Below the pieces are notes generated by a model. It worked only from the letters and a program-made list of their open reading frames with translations. It was not told where the DNA came from and searched no databases. From Sulfurimonas sp. SAG-AH-194-C20 (GTDB lineage Bacteria; Campylobacterota; Campylobacteria; Campylobacterales; Sulfurimonadaceae), in the NCBI GenBank assembly GCA_029215975.1, contig JAEMVD010000002.1, positions 27,235 through 91,234 of the forward strand: a DNA stretch of 64,000 nucleotides, read 5' to 3'. Within the stretch, counting starts at the first letter, position 1. Each line of letters opens with the position of its first letter. Positions 2,096 to 40,407 of the stretch are shown here, in pieces. Both the position numbers and the translations under genes were made by a program.

Positions 2096-2869
2096 ATGAA
2101 ACATATATTTTTACTACTCGTTATAGCACTAGGACTGAGTGCTTCAATGATAAAAACTACACTACTTTCTATTGATTATGATAAAAATAGAGCCACTGTC
2201 AAAATTAAGAGTGTAGATATAGGTGTTAGTGGTTTTTTGGTTCATACACTAGCTAAAAATCATACTACAATTGTAAAAAATGTGCAAGTTATATCGTATG
2301 ATAAAACAAGTGAGATAGCAACATTGGAAATGAACACCTTTAATGCTTTACAAAATAATGCTCTTCCAACAGGACGCTGGAAAGCACTTGCAGGCGATAA
2401 GGTAGAACTAGCATTTGGATACTCTCGCTCAATGCTCATTGCTCCGAGTGAAGAAATTTATCATCGTATAACAAAAAGTGTTAAAACGCAGTGGGTGCAT
2501 ATAGATATATTTGCCACTGTTATCTCTTATAGAGGGCACCCGACACCACTTAAAGAAGACTTTAGTGCTATGAGTATTGCTAGTAGTGTAGGACTTTTAT
2601 TTATTTATATTGACAAGAAACTTTATACAGTCGATATAAATACTTTCGTTATTTTAAGTATTAGTGATGCTCCTTTAGTGCAAGATACTTTACAGCTTCC
2701 TTTTTACTCAAGAGTTGAACATATTGAAGCAAACTGGTGGGGAGATGGTAGTAGTGAGTTAGAAGTGTACGAGCCTTACTACTTTGGACTTTTGAAAAAA
2801 TATAATCCTAATAATAAAGCACTGATACAAAATATAGAGAAATTTGAAAAAGGACAAAAAAATGATTGA
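2096..2869 (+). CDS. Exported protein with plasminogen-binding (PgbA-like) N-terminal domain
   Basis: Signal peptide; IGVSGFLVH, LQNNALPT, LIAPSEEIY, HPTPLKEDF motifs; sits between M23 peptidase and glcD as in related taxa. Confidence 0.7.
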   Translation: MKHIFLLLVIALGLSASMIKTTLLSIDYDKNRATVKIKSVDIGVSGFLVHTLAKNHTTIVKNVQVISYDKTSEIATLEMNTFNALQNNALPTGRWKALAGDKVELAFGYSRSMLIAPSEEIYHRITKSVKTQWVHIDIFATVISYRGHPTPLKEDFSAMSIASSVGLLFIYIDKKLYTVDINTFVILSISDAPLVQDTLQLPFYSRVEHIEANWWGDGSSELEVYEPYYFGLLKKYNPNNKALIQNIEKFEKGQKND

Positions 2870-4247
2870 TGCAAAACATTTACAACATTTTACATCTATA
2901 GTTGGTGATGATAATATTTACAGTGATAAAGCACACCTAATAGCTTACTCATACGATGCAACACGCACAAAGTTTGAGCCTGATGCTGTTATATTTCCTA
3001 GAAATGAAGATGACATATCAAAGATACTTAAATACTGTAATGAAAAAAGAATAGTCATCGTTCCTCGTGGAGCAGGGTCTGGTTTTACAGGTGGAGCACT
3101 TCCTAGTAGTGGTGGAATTGTTTTAGGCTTTGAAAAACACATGAACAAAATCCTAGAGATAGATATGAAAAATATGGTAGCCATAGTGCAACCAGGTCTT
3201 ATAAACATGGACTTACAACGTGCTGTTGAAGCGGTTGGTCTTTTTTATCCACCAGATCCAGCGTCTCAAGACTACTCGACTATCGGTGGAAATGTGAGTG
3301 AAAATGCGGGAGGTATGCGTGCTGCAAAGTACGGAATCACTAAAGATTATGTGATGGCAACTCGCGCAGTTCTTCCAAACGGTGACATCATTAAAGCGGG
3401 CAAGCGCACCATCAAAGATGTGGCGGGTTATAACATAAGCGGTATTCTAATCGCGAGTGAGGGAACACTTGCTGTACTTTCAGAAATTACACTGCGTTTG
3501 ATTCCTAAACCGAAGATGACAAAAACAGCAGTAGGGATTTTTGACACTGTAAACGCAGCGATGGAAGCAGTTTATAAAACTATGGCAAGTGGAATTACTC
3601 CTGTTGCCATGGAGTTTTTAGATAATCTTACTATTCGTGCAGTTGAGCAAGTTCATGGCAAAGGTCTTCCTGTTGATGCAGGTGCTTTACTTGTAACTGA
3701 TGTTGATGGAAACCTCGAAGATGATTTAAACTTTCAACTTGCTCAAATTGAGAAGGTATTTAAAGAGAATGGTTGTAGAGAATTTAGAATAGCAAAAGAT
3801 GAAAAAGAGGCAGCTGATATCTGGTTTGCTCGGCGTAATGCTTCTCAAGCGATTACTATTTATGGTAGCAAAAAGCTCAACGAAGATGTTACTGTCCCAC
3901 GTGCTGCATTGCCAGAACTGTTAAATAAGTTTAATGCAATTGCTAAGAAATATGATATCAACATCCCGTGTTTTGGTCATACAGGTGATGGAAATGTACA
4001 TACAAATGTTATGGTAGATGGGAAAGACCCAGAGCAGGTAAAAATCGCTTATCAGGCAATAGAAGAAGTTTTTCAAGCAACTATTGACTTAGGTGGAACA
4101 CTCTCTGGTGAGCACGGTATCGGTCTTGCTAAAGCACCTTATATGCGAATGGCGTTTAGTGACGAGGAGATGAACCTCTTTAAGTCCATTAAAATGGCGT
4201 TTGACCCTAACAACATTTTAAACCCTGCAAAAATGGGTCTTGATTAA
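2862..4247 (+). CDS. glcD: FAD-linked oxidase, glycolate oxidase subunit GlcD-like
   Basis: PRGAGSGFTGG, YPPDPAS, GHTGDGNVH, SGEHGIG, DPNNILNP; AGGA RBS before ATG 2862. Confidence 0.85.
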   Translation: MIDAKHLQHFTSIVGDDNIYSDKAHLIAYSYDATRTKFEPDAVIFPRNEDDISKILKYCNEKRIVIVPRGAGSGFTGGALPSSGGIVLGFEKHMNKILEIDMKNMVAIVQPGLINMDLQRAVEAVGLFYPPDPASQDYSTIGGNVSENAGGMRAAKYGITKDYVMATRAVLPNGDIIKAGKRTIKDVAGYNISGILIASEGTLAVLSEITLRLIPKPKMTKTAVGIFDTVNAAMEAVYKTMASGITPVAMEFLDNLTIRAVEQVHGKGLPVDAGALLVTDVDGNLEDDLNFQLAQIEKVFKENGCREFRIAKDEKEAADIWFARRNASQAITIYGSKKLNEDVTVPRAALPELLNKFNAIAKKYDINIPCFGHTGDGNVHTNVMVDGKDPEQVKIAYQAIEEVFQATIDLGGTLSGEHGIGLAKAPYMRMAFSDEEMNLFKSIKMAFDPNNILNPAKMGLD

Positions 4248-4248
4248 C

Positions 4249-5064
4249 ATGAGTGAAAAAAGTACTCACATTCTTAAAGAGATTAAGTTTTGGGTGAGTA
4301 CTTTTGTTGACAAAGAGCTTACACTCTTTGCTGCTAGTCTGAGTTTTTATACTATTTTTACCATCATCCCACTTCTTTTAATAATACTAACACTTTTAAC
4401 TTCACTTCCAAGTTTTGCAGATCATTACGAGAGTATAAAAAGTTTTATTTTCTCAAATCTTATGCCAGTAAATTCTGAACTAGTGATGGAAAAGTTAGAT
4501 ATATTTTTAGCAAACTCTTCAAAAATGGGGATGATAGGTTTTGCGATGATTTTAGTGGCTTCATTGCTCTTTTTTAAAAACTTTGAGTATATTGCTAACA
4601 AGATATTTCATGCAAAACCTAGAACTCTTTGGGAGTCCATAACAACTTACTGGACGATGCTCACTCTTACTCCTATTGCTTTAGGAGTCTCTTTTTACAT
4701 TACCGGCTATATCGCAACTCTAATGGCTTCAAACTCTTTAACTTCAGGTTTTAATATCTTGCCATTAGTCCCGTATGTTATTATCTGGGCACTTTTCTTT
4801 TTGATATTTCAAATAGGACCAAACGCAAAGATAAATCCTAGAGCTTCATTTATAAGCTCATTTATCATCTCCATAGTCTTTAGTGTGAGTAAAAATGCTT
4901 TTATTTATTATGTGTTTTTAAACAAATCATACACTACAATGTACGGCTCTTTTGCTATCGTTATGTTCTTGTTTTTATGGATTTACGTCTCGTGGATTAT
5001 CTTTATTTATGGCTTGAAGTTATGTTATATTATTGACAAATTATACCAAAATAAAAATCATTAG
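4249..5064 (+). CDS. YihY/BrkB family inner membrane protein
   Basis: AASLSFYTIFTIIP, YGSFAIVMFLFLWIYVSW; multiple TM helices. Confidence 0.88.
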   Translation: MSEKSTHILKEIKFWVSTFVDKELTLFAASLSFYTIFTIIPLLLIILTLLTSLPSFADHYESIKSFIFSNLMPVNSELVMEKLDIFLANSSKMGMIGFAMILVASLLFFKNFEYIANKIFHAKPRTLWESITTYWTMLTLTPIALGVSFYITGYIATLMASNSLTSGFNILPLVPYVIIWALFFLIFQIGPNAKINPRASFISSFIISIVFSVSKNAFIYYVFLNKSYTTMYGSFAIVMFLFLWIYVSWIIFIYGLKLCYIIDKLYQNKNH

Positions 5065-31130: not shown

Positions 31131-32033
31131 TTATCTTGCTATAACTTTATCTCTGCCTGACTCTTTAGCTTTATAAAGAAGAATGTCAACCCTTTTTATG
31201 AGAGTACTCATTTCCTCATTTGGAACATACTCTGTAACTCCAAAACTAGCAGTTATAGCGAGCTCTTTGTTTGTAAAAGGAGTGCTTTTGATAAGTTTTT
31301 GCAATTTTTCTGCAATATATATAGCAACTTCTAAGTTTGCAGCAGCGATAAAAATAAAAAATTCTTCACCACCAAAGCGAATGAAGGAATCATTATCTCG
31401 AATAGAGTTTTGAGTTAGCTTGGAAATCTCAATAAGAACATCATCACCAACATCGTGACCGTAAGTGTCATTGACTTTTTTAAAGTAATCGATATCAAGC
31501 ATAATCAATGAAAAAGGTTCACTATATGCTTTTACCCTCGATGTAAGTTGATAAAACTTATCTTCTGCCCCATACCGATTGTAAGCACCAGTGAGAGGGT
31601 CAATAACATTACGCAACTCACTCTCGCTGAGCTCATTTGTTAAAGTTTTTTGTGTACGATCAACATTTTGTAGATAAACTAGAAGGTTTTTGAGTTGATG
31701 GAGGTAGCTTTTATAGGTAAAAAGAGAGATGATATTATGCTCTTTTAGAGTGCTTGAAAGATGGTCATAATCTTCAAGGTGAGAGATAAGAATAACGGGA
31801 GTACCGCTACTTTCTATATCGTTATGAAGATTCTCTAAGAGTTCTAATATTTCTATGCTATCAAGGCTTATATAAATAAGAATAAGGTCAGCATGATTAT
31901 CCATAAGATACTCTAGTGCTTCTTCTTTTGTAATTGTATATATTATGTTTATATCCAAGCACTGAAGCTCAGAGGATAACTCTTGATGATAGAGTTGAGA
32001 ATTATCAAATGTTAGTAAGTTATATTGTTTCAT
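31131..32033 (-). CDS. Diguanylate cyclase with degenerate receiver-like N-domain
   Basis: DPLTGAYNR, RDND I-site, RFGGEEF. Confidence 0.9.
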   Translation of the reverse strand: MKQYNLLTFDNSQLYHQELSSELQCLDINIIYTITKEEALEYLMDNHADLILIYISLDSIEILELLENLHNDIESSGTPVILISHLEDYDHLSSTLKEHNIISLFTYKSYLHQLKNLLVYLQNVDRTQKTLTNELSESELRNVIDPLTGAYNRYGAEDKFYQLTSRVKAYSEPFSLIMLDIDYFKKVNDTYGHDVGDDVLIEISKLTQNSIRDNDSFIRFGGEEFFIFIAAANLEVAIYIAEKLQKLIKSTPFTNKELAITASFGVTEYVPNEEMSTLIKRVDILLYKAKESGRDKVIAR

Positions 32034-32052
32034 GCACTAACTCTACAAAGAA

Positions 32053-32820
32053 TTAGCTTTTAGAATCTTTAAGCTTAGTCTCTTGAATCATTTCATAAGC
32101 TTGATTTATCTCCTGAGTCTTTCTTGTAGCCTCTTGCATATAAGCCTCATCTTTACCTTGAGAAGCGATGATGTCTGGATGGTATTGTCTTACTAGTTTT
32201 CTATAAGCTTTTTTGACAACTTTTATGTCATCAGCTTTATTTACACCTAATATTTTATATGCATCTTCAATATTTGCTTTTGGAGATACATTTTTCATCA
32301 TCTGCTCAAACTGATCAAAGATAGCATGATAAGCATCAGGATTAAACTCTAAAGCCTCTGCTATTGTTTGTAAAGCATCTTCTTCCTCGCTTGAACACTC
32401 ACCGTCTATAAACGCGAGTTGAATTAAAAAGCCCATAAACTGTTGGAGTTTTGCTCGGTCGCGTTTGATAGCACTTGCTAAGCGATGTGCGATGTCTTGT
32501 GTATCATCACTTCTATCTTTTTCTTGGTTAAATATATCTTTGAGTATCTGTTTTGTCTTCTCAGGTTGGGGAAAAACTGCTGAGATGTCATCAAACATTA
32601 TGCCGATAAGTTGTGCTTCAAGAGCATCAACTCTCCCATCTGCTTTAGCAACTTTAGCTACAAGGGCTACAAAGAGTCCTAGTTCGCTATTTTTTAATGA
32701 CTCATGAGAGACAGAGAAATTTTCAAAAGCTTTTTTTGAGTAGTTTTCATACTTTGAGTAACTTTTAAATACAGAGTATAAAATATAGCCGATGACTGCA
32801 AGAACGATGAGGTTGAACAT
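32053..32820 (-). CDS. djlA: DjlA-like co-chaperone (TM + TerB + J domain)
   Basis: AKVAKADGRV, AYKILG, YHPD, EINQAYE. Confidence 0.88.
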   Translation of the reverse strand: MFNLIVLAVIGYILYSVFKSYSKYENYSKKAFENFSVSHESLKNSELGLFVALVAKVAKADGRVDALEAQLIGIMFDDISAVFPQPEKTKQILKDIFNQEKDRSDDTQDIAHRLASAIKRDRAKLQQFMGFLIQLAFIDGECSSEEEDALQTIAEALEFNPDAYHAIFDQFEQMMKNVSPKANIEDAYKILGVNKADDIKVVKKAYRKLVRQYHPDIIASQGKDEAYMQEATRKTQEINQAYEMIQETKLKDSKS

Positions 32821-32980: not shown

Positions 32981-33864
32981 ATTACTTCGAAAATATGAAT
33001 AAGGGTGTTAAGTATATGCTTGTCGCCTCTTTTACCTTTGCTATTATGGGTGCTTTTGCTAAACTAGCTAGCGAGAGTGTCTCCTCTTTAGAAGTAGTGT
33101 TTTTTAGAAATTTAGCAGGTGTTGTCATCATAGGTTTTGCGATTTTGAAAAATCCGATGACACATAAAGGTGGTAAACCTTTTTTACTTTTTTTTAGAGG
33201 TTTTATAGGATTTTTAGCGCTCCTTGCTTTTTTTTACAATATTGCCCATATATCACTTGGAGATGCAATGACTTACTCAAAAACAAGCCCTATATTTACA
33301 GCTGTATTTGCCTTTGTTTTTTTACAAGAGAAGTTGAATTATAAGACTTGGGTAGCTATTTCTGTAGGATTTATTGGTATCGTATTTATCACACAACCGA
33401 GTTCTCTTGGTTTGAGTAAATATGATTTATTAGGGATATTCTCAGGAGTGGGGGCAGCACTTGCATATACTTCTGTGCGCGAGTTGAAAAACTATTATGA
33501 TACAAGGGCAATAGTGCTTTCCTTTATGTTAAGTGGAACAGTTGGACCAATAATTCTATTTCTCATTTATCCTTACTTCAATGCTCCAGAACTTGACTTT
33601 TTACTAAGTGATTTCATCCTGCCAAAGGGAATAATATGGTTTTATTTAACAGCAATGGGAATCTTTGCAACAATTTCTCAAGTGTTAATGACTAAGGCTT
33701 ATGGAGAAACTAAGGCTGGTATCATTGGAGCTGTAAGTTATAGTAACATTTTGTTTTCTATTATAGTGGGTATGATATTGGGTGATTCCTTCCCCTCTGT
33801 CAGTACAAATTTTGGTATTTTTCTTATAGTTTTCGCTGGCATAATGGTAGCAAAAGCAAAATAA
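32968..33864 (+). CDS. DMT/EamA family transporter (alternative start 32995)
   Basis: About 10 TM; EVVFFRN, SPIFTAVFAFVFLQEK, QVLMTKAY. Confidence 0.92.
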   Translation: MPSRNYFENMNKGVKYMLVASFTFAIMGAFAKLASESVSSLEVVFFRNLAGVVIIGFAILKNPMTHKGGKPFLLFFRGFIGFLALLAFFYNIAHISLGDAMTYSKTSPIFTAVFAFVFLQEKLNYKTWVAISVGFIGIVFITQPSSLGLSKYDLLGIFSGVGAALAYTSVRELKNYYDTRAIVLSFMLSGTVGPIILFLIYPYFNAPELDFLLSDFILPKGIIWFYLTAMGIFATISQVLMTKAYGETKAGIIGAVSYSNILFSIIVGMILGDSFPSVSTNFGIFLIVFAGIMVAKAK

Positions 33865-33878
33865 GCTATAATAAGCTT
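33845..33878 (+). repeat. 34-bp direct repeat, left copy
   Basis: TGGTAGCAAAAGCAAAATAAGCTATAATAAGCTT; matches 36247-36280 with 2 mismatches. Confidence 0.9.
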
Positions 33879-33891
33879 TATAAGGAAAACA

Positions 33892-35253
33892 ATGAAAAAA
33901 TCACTCATAACCCTAATTCTTTTGACACTTTTTATCACTGCTTGTGGTAGTGCCAAACTCTCACCCGATCAGAAAAGTATGATACATAATCGTGATTTAC
34001 TTTATACTATTGTCCCTATGTGGGAAGAGAAAGACAGGATATATGGTACAAATTATAAAATAGGAACATTAATTCCTATTAATAGCTCTGTTAGAGTTAT
34101 CGCGGCAAATAATAAGGCGATAGTTTTTGAATATAACGGCAAAAAAAAGACTTATTATATTATGCAAAATCACTCTCGTGTTGACACATCTGCAACATTA
34201 GCAAGAACTTTTTCAAGAACACCAGTACAGCTTAATGTATACACTAAAGAAATGCAAATAAATATAATAAGAGGAAACCTTACAAATAATATGACAAAAG
34301 ATCAAGTTATCTTTGCCCGAGGTTATCCCCCATTTCATAGAACACCTTCTCTGACACAAAATAGTTGGAAGTACTGGAATACAAAACATGGCACACAAAC
34401 AATACAATTTACTAATGGAGTTTTAGGTGGTATAGGGATGCCTTATTCAAGTCTACCAGTTGCGCTTACTCAGGTGCAAAACCCAATAATTAATACAAAA
34501 CTTCCATATAATTTTACCAAAACAAATATATCGCAGCCAGATTCATTTGTTCTTGCAATCGGTATAAATAAGTACCAAGAAAATCCTGATGTTGCATATG
34601 CAGATAAATCAGCTCTTGCATTTGCTGAGTTAGCAAAGACAACTATGGGTGTGCCAAAAGAAAACATAATTACACTAACAAATGAGCAAGCAACTTCAGG
34701 GCAACTAAAAGCTAAAATGGAGCTTATAAAGGAACTCTCAGATAGTAGAGGAAATCTCTATATTTATTTTGCAGGACATGGTGTTCCCGGTAAAGATGGA
34801 GCAACATATATTCTTCCATATGATATGAATGCAGATACTATTCATCTAGAACCAAACCTTAGACTCGATAAAATTTATGCAAAACTGGCCAAATTGGATG
34901 TTAAAAAAGTATTTGTAATTATGGATACTTGTTTTAGTGGTAAAGATGATGATGGATCACTTCTTTATAAAGGTGTAGCTCCTGTCCTTAAAAGTAAAAA
35001 AGTTAAAGTTACCAGTAGCAAACTCACTGTTCTTACAGCTGGAAAGTCAACAGACTTTGCAAATGATTTTGAGTCTAAACAGCAAAGAATGTTCACGTAC
35101 TATCTCATAGATGAATTATCAAAAGGTAAAAGTAATATTAGTGAAATCTATCCAGAGATTCAGTCAAGAGTGAAGCGTTCATCTCTGATGAAAGGACTTG
35201 GCTATAAACAAATTCCACAGAAATATGGAAATACATCTCAAAAGTTTTATTAA
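33892..35253 (+). CDS. Lipoprotein with C-terminal caspase-like (peptidase C14) domain
   Basis: Lipobox ITAC; VLAIGINKY, YFAGHG (His), MDTCFSG (Cys), FTYYL, QIP. Confidence 0.88.
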   Translation: MKKSLITLILLTLFITACGSAKLSPDQKSMIHNRDLLYTIVPMWEEKDRIYGTNYKIGTLIPINSSVRVIAANNKAIVFEYNGKKKTYYIMQNHSRVDTSATLARTFSRTPVQLNVYTKEMQINIIRGNLTNNMTKDQVIFARGYPPFHRTPSLTQNSWKYWNTKHGTQTIQFTNGVLGGIGMPYSSLPVALTQVQNPIINTKLPYNFTKTNISQPDSFVLAIGINKYQENPDVAYADKSALAFAELAKTTMGVPKENIITLTNEQATSGQLKAKMELIKELSDSRGNLYIYFAGHGVPGKDGATYILPYDMNADTIHLEPNLRLDKIYAKLAKLDVKKVFVIMDTCFSGKDDDGSLLYKGVAPVLKSKKVKVTSSKLTVLTAGKSTDFANDFESKQQRMFTYYLIDELSKGKSNISEIYPEIQSRVKRSSLMKGLGYKQIPQKYGNTSQKFY

Positions 35254-35255
35254 AT

Positions 35256-36215
35256 ATGAAAAATATATTTTTAATTTGGCTGTTAGTACCATTTTTAGGT
35301 TATGCTTCTCCAAACTGGATGTTCAAAATAGAACATGAAAAAAGTATAGTTATTGGGTATGGTGTTGGTGTTTCACTTAAAGAAGCCAAACAGAGTGCAA
35401 TGTCTGATATAACAAATTTTCTCTCAGTTGAAATAAACTCAGATATGGCAATTTCCTCAAGTGATGTCAATGGAATTGCTAGTAATAGTTCATATGCAAA
35501 ACTCAGAACTAGTTCTCAAGCACAACTTAGTGGAATAGAGTTTATTAAGATAAAACAAGAAGGAAATCTTTGGTATATCGCTGCTCAATATGATAATACC
35601 CCTTTTAGTGTAAAGTTTGCTAAACTAATAGGGATAGTTAGTAAAAATGAAGTACAAAATAAATATCTTAAAAATACAGCACTCTTTTCTTCTTTAAATA
35701 AAGAGATGGAGTGCAATCTAAACTATTCACTTATTAGGCAAGATAATCTATGGCAAATAAAGTATAAAAAATCAATTATTCCTCTGAACCAAAAAGAGTT
35801 TTATAAACTTTTTTCAAGTGAGCATAATGAAATTATTTATCTGAGTGCAAATAAAAAAGTCTATAAAGAACAGGATGAAATGTACTTTAATATACAGCAT
35901 AAAAAACCTGGATTTATTTCTATCGTTTATGTTGAACATAATGGAAAAGTAGGTGTTCTTCTTGATAACATTCCTTCTAGAGGTGATTTTAAATATCCAG
36001 ATATAAAAGACGAAGATGTATTTAAAGTTTCTAATCCCTATAGAAAGACTGTTAAAGAACTTTATGTTGCAATATATTCACAAAAAAGTTTAAATCTTCA
36101 AGAATTTGAAAATATTGGGGACTCGCAACTCGATGAGAGCAGTTATAACTTTGATAAACTTGTCAAACTTTTAGATAAGAATGATTTTTCTAGTTATATT
36201 GTTAAAATTAAATAA
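35256..36215 (+). CDS. Exported LPP20-like protein with DUF4384-like C-terminal domain
   Basis: Signal peptide; PNW, GYGVG..LKEAKQSAMSDI...VEINS; KKVYKEQDEMYFNI...GFISIVYVEHNGKV...ELYVAI. Confidence 0.7.
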   Translation: MKNIFLIWLLVPFLGYASPNWMFKIEHEKSIVIGYGVGVSLKEAKQSAMSDITNFLSVEINSDMAISSSDVNGIASNSSYAKLRTSSQAQLSGIEFIKIKQEGNLWYIAAQYDNTPFSVKFAKLIGIVSKNEVQNKYLKNTALFSSLNKEMECNLNYSLIRQDNLWQIKYKKSIIPLNQKEFYKLFSSEHNEIIYLSANKKVYKEQDEMYFNIQHKKPGFISIVYVEHNGKVGVLLDNIPSRGDFKYPDIKDEDVFKVSNPYRKTVKELYVAIYSQKSLNLQEFENIGDSQLDESSYNFDKLVKLLDKNDFSSYIVKIK

Positions 36216-36246
36216 AAACTGTATAGTGCCTTTATCTTTGAATATG

Positions 36247-36280
36247 TGGCAGCAAAAGTAAAATAAGCTATAATAAGCTT
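36247..36280 (+). repeat. 34-bp direct repeat, right copy (contains likely kdsA -10 box)
   Basis: TGGCAGCAAAAGTAAAATAAGCTATAATAAGCTT. Confidence 0.9.
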
Positions 36281-36308
36281 AACAAAAATTTTAAACTAAG
36301 AAGAAAAT

Positions 36309-37977: not shown

Positions 37978-40407
37978 ATGCAAAAGTTACTATTTTTAGC
38001 ACTCTTTTTTACAGTTTCACTTTCTGCTGAGATTGATTATACGAAAAAAAATAACTGTCTAAATTGTCATAGTGGTATTGAGCATATTCGTGAAGAGAGC
38101 TCTAAAATGAGTAAAGCGATTGCCACTAAAGCAAAAGAGGCTGGTTATGCTGAAAATAGTTGTATTATCTGTCATGGCGGAAATCCTGCTACAAGACATA
38201 AAAGTAAGGCACACAAAGGTACGATAGAGTACTTTAAAAGTCATGCTGGACCAAAAGAGTACTATCCTGCACCTGCAAGTTCTTGGATAAACGAGAACAC
38301 TTGTGGTGTTTGTCATCCAGTTCAAGTAAAAAATCAGATGAACTCTTTAATGATGACAGAACAAGGAAAAATCCAAGGGGCGATGTGGTCTTTTGGTGCC
38401 AAAGAGGGTTATAAACACATAAATGGTAACTACAAAACACATAATCCTCGTGATCCAATGTCTCGTTCGGGAACTAAAACTTATCGCGAGTACATGGAAA
38501 AACTCGCAAAGATGGAACCTCAAGCTTTTCCAGCGAAGATGCAAGAACTTCCAAAAGCTCCAACACTAAAAGAAGTAACTGCTGATCCATCTTTAGCTGT
38601 TTTTACATATCTTCGCCAAGAGTGTTTGCGTTGTCATACAGGAAGTAAAGGTCGCTCAAAACGTGGTGACTTTAGAGGAATAGGATGTGCATCCTGTCAT
38701 GTACCTTACTCAAATGAAGGTTTTTATGAGGGAAATGATCAGTCTATAGATAAAAAATCCCCAGGACATATGCTCTCTCATCAGATACAGTCTTCTCGCA
38801 AGGTTAAAGTAAATATCCATGATGTGAAATACTCGGGTGTTCCTGTTGAGACATGCTCAACCTGCCATAACCGTGGTAAACGCATAGGTGTCTCTTACCA
38901 AGGGCTTATGGAGACTTCATATAACGCTACTTTTGATAAAGATGGAAACGGACAGCCAAAACTGCATACTAAACGCTACTTACACATGAAAGAAGATATT
39001 CACTATCAAAAAGGGATGTTGTGTCAAGATTGCCACACTTCAAATGACTTGCATGGTGATGGTTTTTTAGGTGGAGCAAATTTAGCAGCTGTTGAGATAG
39101 AGTGTCAAGATTGTCACGGAACTACCAAAGCATATCCTTGGGAGTTACCTATTGGTTACTCTGATGAGTTTTCTAAAGAGAGAAGTCAAGGTAAAGCTCG
39201 TGGTGTTACTGGGGACTTAGCTGAGTATCTAAAACAAGGTTATGTTCCTGCTGATAAGGGTGATGGATATATCTTAACAGCACGCGGAAATCCACTTCCT
39301 AAAGCTGTTAAAAAGGGCAACAAAATCATAATGCACTTGGCTAGTGGAAAAGATATAGAACTTAAACCACTAAAGCTTTTAAAAGAAGAAAAAAGACTCT
39401 CTAAAAAAGCACTGATTGCTATGGATGTTGTGACTGCACACACCGAAGAGTTGGAGTGTTACACTTGTCATGCTACTTGGGCACCTCAATGCTATGGTTG
39501 TCATGTAAAGATAGACTATAGTGGTGGAAAAACAAATGTCGATTATTTAAAAGCTTCTCACGATCAAGATATTCACGGAACTACTGGTGGCATGCGAGAC
39601 TTAAAAAAATATCTTATACCGGGAAAAGTGACTGAAACTCGTTCATATTTACGTTGGGAAGACCCTGCATTAGCTCAAAATGGTGAGGGTCGTATAACTC
39701 CTGTTATACCTGGATGTCAAACAACCATTACGGTTATTGGTGAAGATGGAAAAGCACTGCTTCAAAACCATATATTTAAAGTGAAAAATGTAGAAGGAGC
39801 TGGAGAAGAGGGACAAAATGCTATAGATATGTCACCTGTTCAGCCTCATACCATTTCTAAAGAGGCACGTAACTGTGAGTCTTGTCATGTCTCAGATAAG
39901 GCTTTAGGACTTGGTGTCGGCGGTGGAAAACTCAACGCAGACTGGTCTAAAACAACTATTATAGATTTGATGAGTCCAGATAGAAAAATTCTACCAAGAA
40001 AAACAGATGAGCAGATACCAGGGATTCCAAATCTCAAACATGATTACTCACAGTTTGTAGATGAAAATGGTACTCAGCTTATGACAGTAGGACATCACTT
40101 TAAGCTTTCACAAGCACTAGACAAAGAGCAAAGAGCAAAACTTGACCGTCGCGGTGTTTGTCTCTCTTGTCATATAGATATACCAGAGGGAAATTTAGCG
40201 GTTAGTGCTATGACACACATAGCCGAGATGGCGGAGATAGAGATAGATAACAAAGAACATAAAAATATTTTAAATAAAATTTTAAATATTGGTGCAGCTA
40301 CACAGATTGTCATAGGAATATTTGTTTTACTAGTGTTTATCTATCTTGTATATACTCTTTTCATTAAGAAAAAACTGATTAACCCAAGAAACAGAGGATG
40401 GAAATAA
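37978..40407 (+). CDS. Multiheme c-type cytochrome (12 CxxCH), C-terminal TM anchor
   Basis: Signal peptide; CLNCH, CIICH, CGVCH, CLRCH, CASCH, CSTCH, CQDCH x2, CYTCH, CYGCH, CESCH, CLSCH. Confidence 0.92.
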   Translation: MQKLLFLALFFTVSLSAEIDYTKKNNCLNCHSGIEHIREESSKMSKAIATKAKEAGYAENSCIICHGGNPATRHKSKAHKGTIEYFKSHAGPKEYYPAPASSWINENTCGVCHPVQVKNQMNSLMMTEQGKIQGAMWSFGAKEGYKHINGNYKTHNPRDPMSRSGTKTYREYMEKLAKMEPQAFPAKMQELPKAPTLKEVTADPSLAVFTYLRQECLRCHTGSKGRSKRGDFRGIGCASCHVPYSNEGFYEGNDQSIDKKSPGHMLSHQIQSSRKVKVNIHDVKYSGVPVETCSTCHNRGKRIGVSYQGLMETSYNATFDKDGNGQPKLHTKRYLHMKEDIHYQKGMLCQDCHTSNDLHGDGFLGGANLAAVEIECQDCHGTTKAYPWELPIGYSDEFSKERSQGKARGVTGDLAEYLKQGYVPADKGDGYILTARGNPLPKAVKKGNKIIMHLASGKDIELKPLKLLKEEKRLSKKALIAMDVVTAHTEELECYTCHATWAPQCYGCHVKIDYSGGKTNVDYLKASHDQDIHGTTGGMRDLKKYLIPGKVTETRSYLRWEDPALAQNGEGRITPVIPGCQTTITVIGEDGKALLQNHIFKVKNVEGAGEEGQNAIDMSPVQPHTISKEARNCESCHVSDKALGLGVGGGKLNADWSKTTIIDLMSPDRKILPRKTDEQIPGIPNLKHDYSQFVDENGTQLMTVGHHFKLSQALDKEQRAKLDRRGVCLSCHIDIPEGNLAVSAMTHIAEMAEIEIDNKEHKNILNKILNIGAATQIVIGIFVLLVFIYLVYTLFIKKKLINPRNRGWK

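Follow-up and report, generated by a model that had tools for sequence, protein, structure and literature searches.

The window, that is the whole stretch of 64,000 nucleotides analysed, contains two neighbouring genes on the forward strand, placed between eamA and kdsA. Gene 1 (33892-35253) is an open reading frame of 453 aa, aligned with ten homologues, which encodes a predicted lipoprotein with a caspase-like (C14) protease domain. Gene 2 (35256-36215), an open reading frame of 319 aa with 43 homologues, encodes its partner, a predicted exported protein that joins an LPP20/HP1454-like part to DUF4384. An earlier sequence-only reading of this DNA had given gene coordinates and quoted several motifs of gene 1, and all of them are present: MTKDQVIFARGYPP...WKYW at residues 134-162, FAGHG at 293-297 and DTCFSG at 345-350. 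It had also placed the start of gene 2 directly behind gene 1, which the coordinates of the open reading frames bear out, the ATG of gene 2 lying 2 nt past the TAA of gene 1. The sequence AAGGA is found at 33882-33886, 5 nt 5' of the gene 1 ATG at 33892.

This two-gene cassette has been inserted between eamA and kdsA, and a direct repeat of 39 nt lies on both sides of it. A repeat search located the left copy at 33845-33883 and the right copy at 36247-36285 (no strand assigned), identical at 35/39 positions, and both align with the empty eamA-kdsA junction of congeners. The left copy takes in the final codons of eamA with its stop, the TATAAT at 33867-33872 and the beginning of the leader of gene 1; the right copy holds a degenerate eamA 3' end and the promoter-like TATAAT of kdsA, and the best sigma-70-like match of the region (36246-36274) lies in it. 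The distribution of the cassette is patchy. PADLOC, run on both genes, returned a match to its generic caspase model only (E 1.9e-10) and nothing for gene 2, so that a known defence-system architecture is unsupported.

Residues 1-18 of gene 1 (33892-33945, forward strand) were assigned by rule-based inference to a signal peptide with a lipobox, made of MKK, a hydrophobic core and I-T-A-C; the lipobox ITAC, with Gly at +2, occupies residues 15-19. The lipoprotein signal previously proposed for gene 1 is thus present and also conserved: Cys18, the lipidated residue predicted by the lipobox rule, is invariant in 11/11 aligned sequences, among which the lipobox variants TAC, SGC and GGC occur. Gene 1 contains only two Cys residues, this putative lipid anchor and the catalytic one. 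However, in the database gene 1 and its closest named homologue are called from Met91, as a protein of 363 aa. We favour the long lipoprotein form over the Met91 start because ten homologues of 455-522 aa, 40-76% identical, align across the N-terminal region, because Cys18 is invariant and because of the AAGGA mentioned above. Sorting to the outer membrane by the +2 residue is a rule of E. coli and may not hold in Campylobacterota; an outer-membrane location of gene 1 is probable.

The signal is followed by an N-terminal module, residues 19-181 (33946-34434, forward strand), delimited from the structure model, the family of its homologues and its BamE matches. In the model a beta-rich subdomain (about residues 36-89) comes before a BamE-like alpha-alpha-beta-beta-beta subdomain (about residues 117-180, 34240-34431), with pLDDT mostly 84-96 and 73-83 at residues 51-60 and 141-170. 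The modelled helices (119-127 and 136-143) and strands (158-162, 168-174 and 177-179) fit the BamE order. The homologues of the module count 827 representatives, mostly stand-alone proteins of 180-200 aa, and the BamE-like module belongs to this large family of stand-alone lipoproteins; at one locus (L023) it is a separate lipoprotein gene adjoining a caspase-partner pair.

Concerning BamE (SmpA/OmlA) itself, the module has in common with it the predicted lipoprotein character, the modelled alpha-alpha-beta-beta-beta order and a G-M-[ST]-K...V motif, but it is about 160 aa long, has the additional beta-rich subdomain and belongs to its own stand-alone lipoprotein family, and nothing ties it to the BAM complex. 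All scores of gene 1 are below the Pfam cut-off: the BamE family (PF04355) matches with E 0.058, and its 13.6 bits with the full-length protein and 16.1 with the isolated module compare with a cut-off of 23.2. Among 45 members of the module family, 22 have BamE matches in Pfam with E of 0.1 or less, the best being 7e-4. BamE chains of the PDB appear at E 0.3-0.5 (one at 0.32), and an Atlas cluster named SmpA/OmlA scores 0.92. Together with the secondary structure, these matches give weak but consistent support to the BamE/SmpA-like middle segment suggested from the sequence. In some homologues of gene 1, PF28270 is annotated in the N-terminal region. A disordered linker, residues 182-201 (34435-34494, forward strand), with pLDDT < 50 and a length that varies among homologues, connects the module to the protease.

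The Peptidase_C14 domain covers residues 212-453 (34525-35250, forward strand) and is defined by Pfam, fold and invariant residues. PF00656 matches residues 219-453 with E 3.1e-12 and 47.1 bits, against a cut-off of 21.4. In fold comparison the model of residues 212-453 reached Z 21.9 with the metacaspase AtMC4 (6w8r; rmsd 2.8 over 215 aligned residues), 21.7 with the paracaspase MALT1 (3v4o) and 21.2 with GSU0716 (3bij), and Foldseek gave E 1e-10 to MALT1 and GSU0716. Lower values were found for a legumain-type ligase (5h0i, 17.8), the GPI transamidase (7w72_K, 16.2) and gingipains (about 10). Matches to the caspase domain took up the fold searches made with the complete gene 1 model. Sequence searches of the PDB, with the caspase profile and with the caspase domain alone, found no relative, and it is the fold comparison alone that links the domain to solved caspases. 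The NCBIfam model NF047832 (EACC1-associated caspase) gave 59.6 bits and did not reach its cut-off of 140, and the EACC1 partner is absent. One source labels a homologue of gene 1 'GPI8', which is an automatic label.

The catalytic His296 (34777-34779) and Cys347 (34930-34932) are invariant in 49 homologues and in 22 caspases paired with a partner gene, and in the latter Asp345, two residues before the Cys, and Asp353 are invariant too. The intact His and Cys attributed to this C14 domain from the sequence are therefore backed by a Pfam score over the cut-off, by fold Z values of 21-22 and by the invariance of the dyad, and the domain is predicted to be catalytically intact. In the metacaspase/orthocaspase branch the S1 pocket is acidic and formed by Asp95 and Asp211 of TbMC2 (PMC6426788). 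Asp345 occupies the position of Asp211, and no counterpart of Asp95 could be placed; Asp238 was considered as an S1 residue and dropped, being variable in distant pairs. An invariant Asp at this distance from the catalytic Cys is shared with metacaspases, which makes cleavage after Arg or Lys the probable P1 specificity of gene 1.

Gene 2 starts with a type I signal peptide (residues 1-17), with no lipobox and no Cys near the cleavage site. The junction A-(S/T)-P-x-W is conserved in its 43 homologues, some of which carry a lipobox instead. Three domains follow, all on the forward strand. The LPP20 (SHS2-like) domain, residues 19-116 (35310-35603), was recognised by its fold and by Pfam in the family: PF02169 matches gene 2 itself with E 4.8e-3 and 17.8 bits, below the cut-off of 25.9, and is found in 18/18 diverse partner homologues (best E 2.4e-11), while the modelled fold gives middling Z values of 8.0 to both Lpp20 (5ok8) and HP1454 (4kzs). 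The middle domain, residues 117-190 (35604-35825), consists of two helices and three strands at pLDDT 87-96 and matches no family; many homologues have a pair of Cys in it, seen as paired columns of the diverse alignment. The last domain, DUF4384, residues 191-319 (35826-36212), is an Ig-like beta-sandwich, assigned by Pfam in the family and by fold. PF14326 matches gene 2 itself with E 5e-4 and 20.5 bits, under the cut-off of 27, and 17/18 diverse homologues (best E 3.4e-8), and the fold has middling Z values of 8.2-8.8 to the MG2 domains of alpha-2-macroglobulin, C3, C4 and C5, and to RbmA. The description of gene 2 as an exported LPP20-like plus DUF4384-like protein, weak by its own matches, is therefore upheld at the level of the family.

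Inside the LPP20 domain, between the SHS2 helix and the next strand, is an insert at residues 56-91 (35421-35528) that we interpret as an amphipathic beta-hairpin from its periodicity, its N-G turn (residues 72-73) and its location, corresponding to that of the FlgP hairpin. Hydrophobic residues recur with period 2 on both arms and Gly73 is kept in 38/43 sequences. Residues 59-89 have pLDDT < 50 in the monomer model, and a flexible loop is the alternative to the hairpin. The insert has no invariant Lys or Arg, nor is any Asp invariant in the low-confidence segment, where the highest share of Lys/Arg is 0.60 at one column and less in the diverse set.

Residues 1-113 of gene 2 are related to HP1454-like proteins of Helicobacter-type genomes at a profile E of about 5e-14. 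The first domain has the fold of Helicobacter pylori HP1454 and Lpp20 (HP1456), and gene 2, as HP1454, would be a secreted protein of three domains and about 300 aa; an Atlas structural comparison considered for this likeness gave TM 0.40 over residues 2-286. Gene 2 differs in its long hairpin insert, and the Helicobacter genomes checked have HP1454-like proteins and no caspase. The families of the HP1454 middle and C-terminal domains (PF22018 and PF22017) gave no match to gene 2 with E of 1 or less, in a Pfam copy not confirmed to hold both. HP1454, which has in its first domain the nearest solved relative, binds FlgP, FapH and itself (PMC11756786). In FlgP, the protein of the basal disc of the Campylobacter flagellar motor, a beta-hairpin between the SHS2 helix and the next strand builds the ring (PMC12222027); gene 2 has an SHS2/LPP20-type fold as well, and its putative hairpin is at the position of the ring-forming one. 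It differs from FlgP in lying outside a flagellar locus and in having two extra domains and no lipobox, and searches at E up to 1 gave no match of gene 2 to the FlgP family or to any NCBIfam model; ring formation by gene 2 is what the analogy would suggest.

The two genes are paired in other genomes, as the sequence-only reading required. In Campylobacterota, 22/24 intact partner genes examined adjoin a caspase gene whose product has a signal peptide or lipobox, spread over five or more GTDB families of the order, and 20 of these 22 lie directly downstream of the caspase, often with overlapping stop and start. The remaining two (L019 and L031) have no caspase neighbour. A six-frame search with PF00656 missed partner-adjacent caspases in three genomes (G168, G107 and G250), which a family-specific HMM recovered, and the count of lone partners based on PF00656 was consequently rejected. 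Two genomes (G031 and G287) have one partner gene for three tandem caspases. The identities of the caspase domains correlate with those of the partners (r 0.70; 0/2000 permutations as high), and the N-termini of the paired caspases vary, being BamE-like, WD40, Lcl_C or without known domain. A paralogue of the caspase, 55% identical and located on contig C1 of the same genome, which is 66% complete, has no adjoining partner. A profile search with the partner alignment in a set of 5.8 billion proteins found close Campylobacterota relatives only, and a search for related loci found 7 close ones; beyond the phylum, the distribution of the partners is based on Atlas cluster labels. For 16 partner and 16 caspase homologues the longest source contigs were reported as having the same size.

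Among known systems, orthocaspases and metacaspases (MaOC1 of Microcystis, Geobacter GSU0716) resemble gene 1 in C14 profile, fold, dyad and the Asp before the Cys, and also in having variable accessory domains on one side, WD40 included. However, the studied ones are cytoplasmic, whereas gene 1 is by prediction exported and lipid-anchored, and it has in addition the LPP20-DUF4384 partner gene and the BamE-like N-terminal module. Single-chain fusions join DUF4384 to caspases, subtilases, lysozymes, trypsin-like domains, CsgG, FlgO and kinases (Atlas clusters; PMC6426788; bioRxiv 10.1101/2022.08.17.504292). The caspase-DUF4384 fusions, found in cyanobacterial and proteobacterial orthocaspases, hold the same two domains and stand in a Rosetta-stone relation to our gene pair, but here the domains are on two exported proteins and DUF4384 is joined to LPP20. 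The domain is also C-terminal in one group of Csx30, the substrate of Csx29 (bioRxiv 10.1101/2022.08.17.504292), in a type III-E CRISPR system that, unlike the predicted module, is cytoplasmic and RNA-triggered. The sequence-only reading had regarded the locus as its best candidate for an undescribed system. This stands for the two-gene module, as no literature describing an exported caspase with an LPP20-DUF4384 partner was found, but not for its ingredients, since prokaryotic caspase homologues with predicted export had been noted by 2012 (PMC3501461) and DUF4384-protease fusions were already described (bioRxiv 10.1101/2022.08.17.504292; PMC6426788). Our literature search found no characterised exported caspase homologue.

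The explanation that we consider best, with somewhat less than an even chance of being right, is that the partner forms an oligomeric scaffold on which gene 1, a protease tethered to the outer membrane, is docked or by which it is regulated, the substrates being envelope or surface proteins. The two genes would make up an accessory cassette, coupled in translation, for a protease module acting outside the cytoplasm. Gene 1 would be exported via Sec, lipidated on Cys18 and probably anchored to the outer membrane on its inner face, where the BamE-like lipoprotein module may position or target it in the envelope, with the caspase domain, probably cutting after Arg or Lys, at the end of a flexible linker. 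Gene 2 would reach the same compartment; the FlgP-like hairpin of its LPP20/SHS2 domain probably makes it assemble with itself into arcs or rings beneath the outer membrane, and the Ig-like DUF4384 probably serves to dock or regulate the caspase domain. The partner would thus probably be a constant scaffold or regulator rather than a substrate, while the variable N-terminus of the caspase would select the place or the ligand.

In the cited literature, the bacterial caspase homologues with experiments or a stated location are cytoplasmic (cyanobacterial orthocaspases, Csx29/Craspase), whereas the family of gene 1 puts, by prediction, the same catalytic machinery outside the cytoplasm on a lipid tether. 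Its partner combines domains of the ring type, from the vicinity of the outer membrane (FlgP, Lpp20), with DUF4384, which is often joined to proteases. Once understood, this pair would reveal a first function of DUF4384 and the targets of an exported caspase and would test the variable N-termini as receptors; the cassette, small and self-contained, could readily be moved to a test host. We also considered a sensor-executioner arrangement, which seems distinctly unlikely: interchangeable N-terminal receptors outside the cytoplasm (BamE-like, WD40 or the lectin-like Lcl_C) would sense a foreign signal or one of damage, in the periplasm or at the outer membrane, and activate the caspase, and this would cut or remodel the ring-forming partner so as to seal or breach the envelope or to signal across it. 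If true, it would be a periplasmic counterpart of cytoplasmic caspase-based immunity and cell death.

The strongest competitor of the scaffold explanation, possible although rather unlikely, is that the partner is a dedicated substrate or effector: the caspase would be triggered through its N-terminal sensor and the cut fragment would act on the envelope, by analogy with Csx29-Csx30 and caspase-gasdermin. The tight one-to-one genomic coupling, the patchy, cassette-like distribution and the sensor-like variable N-termini of the protease agree with it, as does the DUF4384 of Csx30, and the partner has a 30-residue low-confidence segment and linkers between domains that might be cut. However, this segment lacks an invariant Lys, Arg or Asp and has the periodicity of a structured hairpin, and a domain that is fused also to lysozyme, subtilase and kinases is ill suited to a caspase-specific substrate; because DUF4384 is joined to so many unrelated enzymes, we prefer to see it as a docking or localisation domain. 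An unlikely case is that of the partner as an inhibitor or chaperone, a pro-domain in trans or an immunity protein silencing a dangerous periplasmic protease until its release. It would explain why the partner is always co-encoded, usually translationally coupled and downstream, can serve several caspases, and has a DUF4384 sandwich resembling the MG domains of the alpha-2-macroglobulin protease traps (Z 8.2-8.8). That similarity, though, is of middling Z and generic for Ig-like sandwiches, neither a bait region nor a thioester motif was seen in the partner, and the 55%-identical paralogue of contig C1 has no adjoining partner, in a genome 66% complete.

It is very unlikely that the caspase fold serves as a transpeptidase or sorting enzyme instead of a hydrolase, attaching or processing surface proteins like the clan CD enzymes GPI8, legumain-type ligases and PorU, the partner being an adaptor on the acceptor side. 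The fold matches to 5h0i (Z 17.8), 7w72_K (Z 16.2) and gingipains (Z about 10), the presumed outer-membrane-proximal location and the 'GPI8' label of one homologue would fit; yet metacaspase, paracaspase and GSU0716 score higher (Z 21-22), the label is automatic and no cargo candidate with a shared C-terminal signal was identified. Finally, the genes could be mere neighbours without a functional link, or the protease an inactive scaffold, as might be argued from the partner genes without a caspase at L019 and L031 and from the HP1454-like proteins that Helicobacter keeps without a caspase. This is extremely improbable and already largely refuted by the counts, with 22/24 pairing across at least five GTDB families; moreover, stop and start overlap in many pairs, the two proteins co-diverge and the catalytic dyad is invariant.

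Both open reading frames that the sequence-only reading had placed at 33892-36215 lie exactly there and are co-directional: gene 1, encoding the caspase-like lipoprotein (33892-35253, +; 453 aa), and gene 2, encoding its LPP20-DUF4384 partner (35256-36215, +; 319 aa). Every gene 1 motif quoted in that reading (the lipobox, the middle segment, the His and Cys motifs of the C14 domain) was found in the sequence. Since gene 2's ATG follows the gene 1 stop codon (TAA) after only two bases, translational coupling of the two is likely. The genome assembly is 66% complete, with Sulfurimonas sp. SAG-AH-194-C21 as the closest named relative; the database gene calls for gene 1 and for its closest named homologue start at Met91 and comprise 363 aa. 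The N-terminal region of gene 1 aligns with ten homologues of 455-522 aa. In this 11-sequence alignment the stretch from Cys18 to Met91 is conserved as protein and Cys18 is invariant, inside a lipobox TAC, SGC or GGC, which upholds the proposed lipid anchor; the ATG at 33892 is preceded by AAGGA at a distance of 5 nt. Judged from the sequence, the long form of 453 aa is the real one and the protein is a lipoprotein, whose mature form contains two Cys only, the lipid-anchor Cys18 and Cys347. The public gene calls, among them the NCBI record of SAG-AH-194-C21, leave out the signal peptide and lipobox as well as half of the N-terminal module (window 33892-34161).

In gene 1 the Pfam model Peptidase_C14 exceeds its cut-off (E 3.1e-12) over residues 219-453; the NCBIfam EACC1-type caspase model scores far under its cut-off, and PADLOC gave only a generic caspase match. 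In the AlphaFold model (pLDDT 84) residues 212-453 form a caspase fold matching Arabidopsis metacaspase 4 (Z 21.9), MALT1 (Z 21.7), Geobacter GSU0716 (Z 21.2), and legumain and GPI8 (Z 16-18). Foldseek was consistent with these matches, and PDB sequence searches returned no solved structure related by sequence to this caspase. The catalytic His296 and Cys347, which had been read as intact, are invariant in 49 homologues and, together with Asp345 and Asp353, in the 22 caspases adjoining a partner gene. Cleavage after basic residues would fit, because Asp345, two residues before the catalytic Cys, stands at the position that Asp211 occupies in the S1 pocket of TbMC2 (PMC6426788); the second pocket Asp of TbMC2 is without a placed counterpart.

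Residues 19-181 of gene 1 were modelled mostly with high confidence (block means 73-96) and are followed by a disordered linker (182-201). The modelled order, a beta-rich part and then two helices and three strands, is that of BamE. An exhaustive search with residues 19-200 returned 827 cluster representatives, 280 of them at E <=1e-10. The majority are stand-alone proteins of 180-200 aa, a few carry two or three module copies or a caspase fusion, and most of 44 aligned homologues have a Cys behind a hydrophobic leader. Pfam BamE matches gene 1 sub-threshold at residues 130-167 and 22 of 45 family members weakly, PDB BamE chains appear at E 0.3-0.5, and the nearest Atlas cluster is named SmpA/OmlA. 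The BamE/SmpA-type resemblance first suggested for this segment thus holds on weak but consistent matches and a fitting modelled secondary structure, pointing to a module BamE-like in fold, not BamE.

For gene 2, Pfam places LPP20 at 19-107 and DUF4384 at 202-238, both sub-threshold; among 18 diverse homologues all match LPP20 and 17 match DUF4384, so that both assignments, proposed earlier for the single protein, are firm at the level of the family's sequences. Three domains are seen in the model (pLDDT 82.6). That of residues 17-116 matches Lpp20 and HP1454's first domain equally (Z 8.0 each), and residues 191-319 form an Ig-like sandwich with middling best matches (Z 8.2-8.8) to RbmA and to MG2 domains of the alpha-2-macroglobulin/complement family. 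Most homologues open with a type I signal whose end reads A-(S/T)-P-x-W, some with a lipobox; the middle domain of many holds a pair of Cys, which would fit a periplasmic protein. Residues 59-89 have low confidence in the monomer model. The alignment of 43 homologues shows here an insert, hydrophobic at every second position, with two arms about a conserved N-G turn (Gly73 in 38/43) and no invariant Lys or Arg. It is placed after the SHS2 helix and before the next strand, as is the beta-hairpin through which FlgP forms the Campylobacter basal-disc rings (PMC12222027). Two-hybrid and co-IP assays showed HP1454 binding to FlgP, to FapH and to itself (PMC11756786).

Profiles built from the family's own caspase domains and partners were scanned over Campylobacterota genome loci. 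Twenty of 24 intact full-length partners are encoded directly downstream of an exported caspase gene on the same strand, often with overlapping stop and start, two are divergent from a neighbouring caspase gene and two are alone (an additional copy is fragmentary and interrupted by stop codons). The expected co-occurrence of the two genes was therefore found for 22 of 24. A hydrophobic signal-like leader or lipobox opens every examined paired caspase with a complete N-terminus (L015 and L022, with uncertain start or cut contig, were excluded). The N-terminal regions themselves vary: BamE-like in the window, elsewhere WD40 propellers, Lcl_C lectin-like or unassigned. Locus L023 of a Sulfurimonas MAG shows the window's fusion in split form, with the BamE-like module encoded by its own 193-aa lipoprotein gene (2047-2628, -), divergent to the genes of a 409-aa caspase and its partner (2772-4960, +). 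Across 22 pairs, caspase-domain identity correlates with partner identity (r 0.70, 0/2000 permutations; genome relatedness inflates the test). Two pairs occur in the closest relative, G014, with 30% identity between their caspases and 31% between their partners. No caspases were found in the Helicobacter-type genomes checked, which keep HP1454-like proteins matching the partner's first domain only. Three homologues (P0017, P0044, P0072) are caspases of ~480 aa with an N-terminal domain labelled PF28270 in a precomputed table.

The window's own genome has a second caspase (contig C1:41337-42095; L020:4335-5270, -), a shorter lipoprotein of 311 aa, 55% identical to gene 1 in the caspase domain and with no adjacent partner; it may use the window's partner in trans. 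A 139-aa lipoprotein gene precedes it. In G031 (L016, G031:C4) and G287 (L035, G287:C10) three tandem exported caspases are followed by one partner gene. These caspases have 306-875 aa, one with WD40 repeats, and those of G031 adjoin genes with an Mla-like appearance, judged by N-terminal sequence only.

Of 29 other congener loci examined, 21 have eamA directly followed by kdsA; the remaining loci either stop before this point or showed no kdsA close by. The window and G014 alone carry genes 1 and 2 between eamA and kdsA. A 39-nt imperfect direct repeat (33845-33883 and 36247-36285; 35/39 identical) brackets the cassette and corresponds to the eamA 3' end and the intergenic, kdsA promoter-like TATAAT of the empty site. 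Read from these sequences, the cassette is an insertion between eamA and kdsA. The family is patchy: gene 1 was matched in 12 of 41 relatives, and the number of caspase matches reaches eight in some genomes. A 2012 paper predicted exported prokaryotic caspase homologues from N-terminal helices (PMC3501461), and caspase-DUF4384 fusions are on record (bioRxiv 10.1101/2022.08.17.504292; PMC6426788); our literature search found no paper on an exported caspase and LPP20-DUF4384 pair, or experiment on one. Two features set this locus apart, the fusion to a BamE-like module and the clean scar of the insertion.

By sequence, gene 1 encodes an exported, lipid-anchored C14 protease, predicted to be catalytically intact, and forms with the gene for an exported LPP20-DUF4384 protein a conserved, mobile two-gene unit. 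The protease would hang from the outer membrane, positioned or targeted by its N-terminal module, and would cut envelope proteins after basic residues; the partner would self-assemble through its hairpin and dock or regulate the caspase through DUF4384. We prefer a scaffold or regulator to a substrate because DUF4384 is fused in single chains not only to caspases but also to lysozymes, subtilases, trypsin-like domains, kinases, CsgG and FlgO (PMC6426788; bioRxiv 10.1101/2022.08.17.504292; Atlas clusters), because the partner's flexible segment has no conserved cleavage residue, and because one partner can serve several caspases, as in G031 and G287. That the caspase cleaves its partner is still a serious rival, since one group of Csx30, the protein cleaved by Csx29, ends in a DUF4384 domain (bioRxiv 10.1101/2022.08.17.504292).

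The shared insertion site in G014 has a further gene of 216 aa (L011:3363-4013, G014:C1) that the window lacks; placed between kdsA and the partner gene, it resembles a response regulator, judged by N-terminal sequence only. Upstream of eamA, a receiver-GGDEF gene stands beside one for a TerB-like/J-domain membrane protein (31131-32820, -; by eye from sequence), and downstream of kdsA-ribH-nusB an 809-aa protein (37978-40407, +) with many haem-binding CxxCH motifs starts with an N-terminal signal and ends in a membrane helix; gene order is identical in G014 on both sides.
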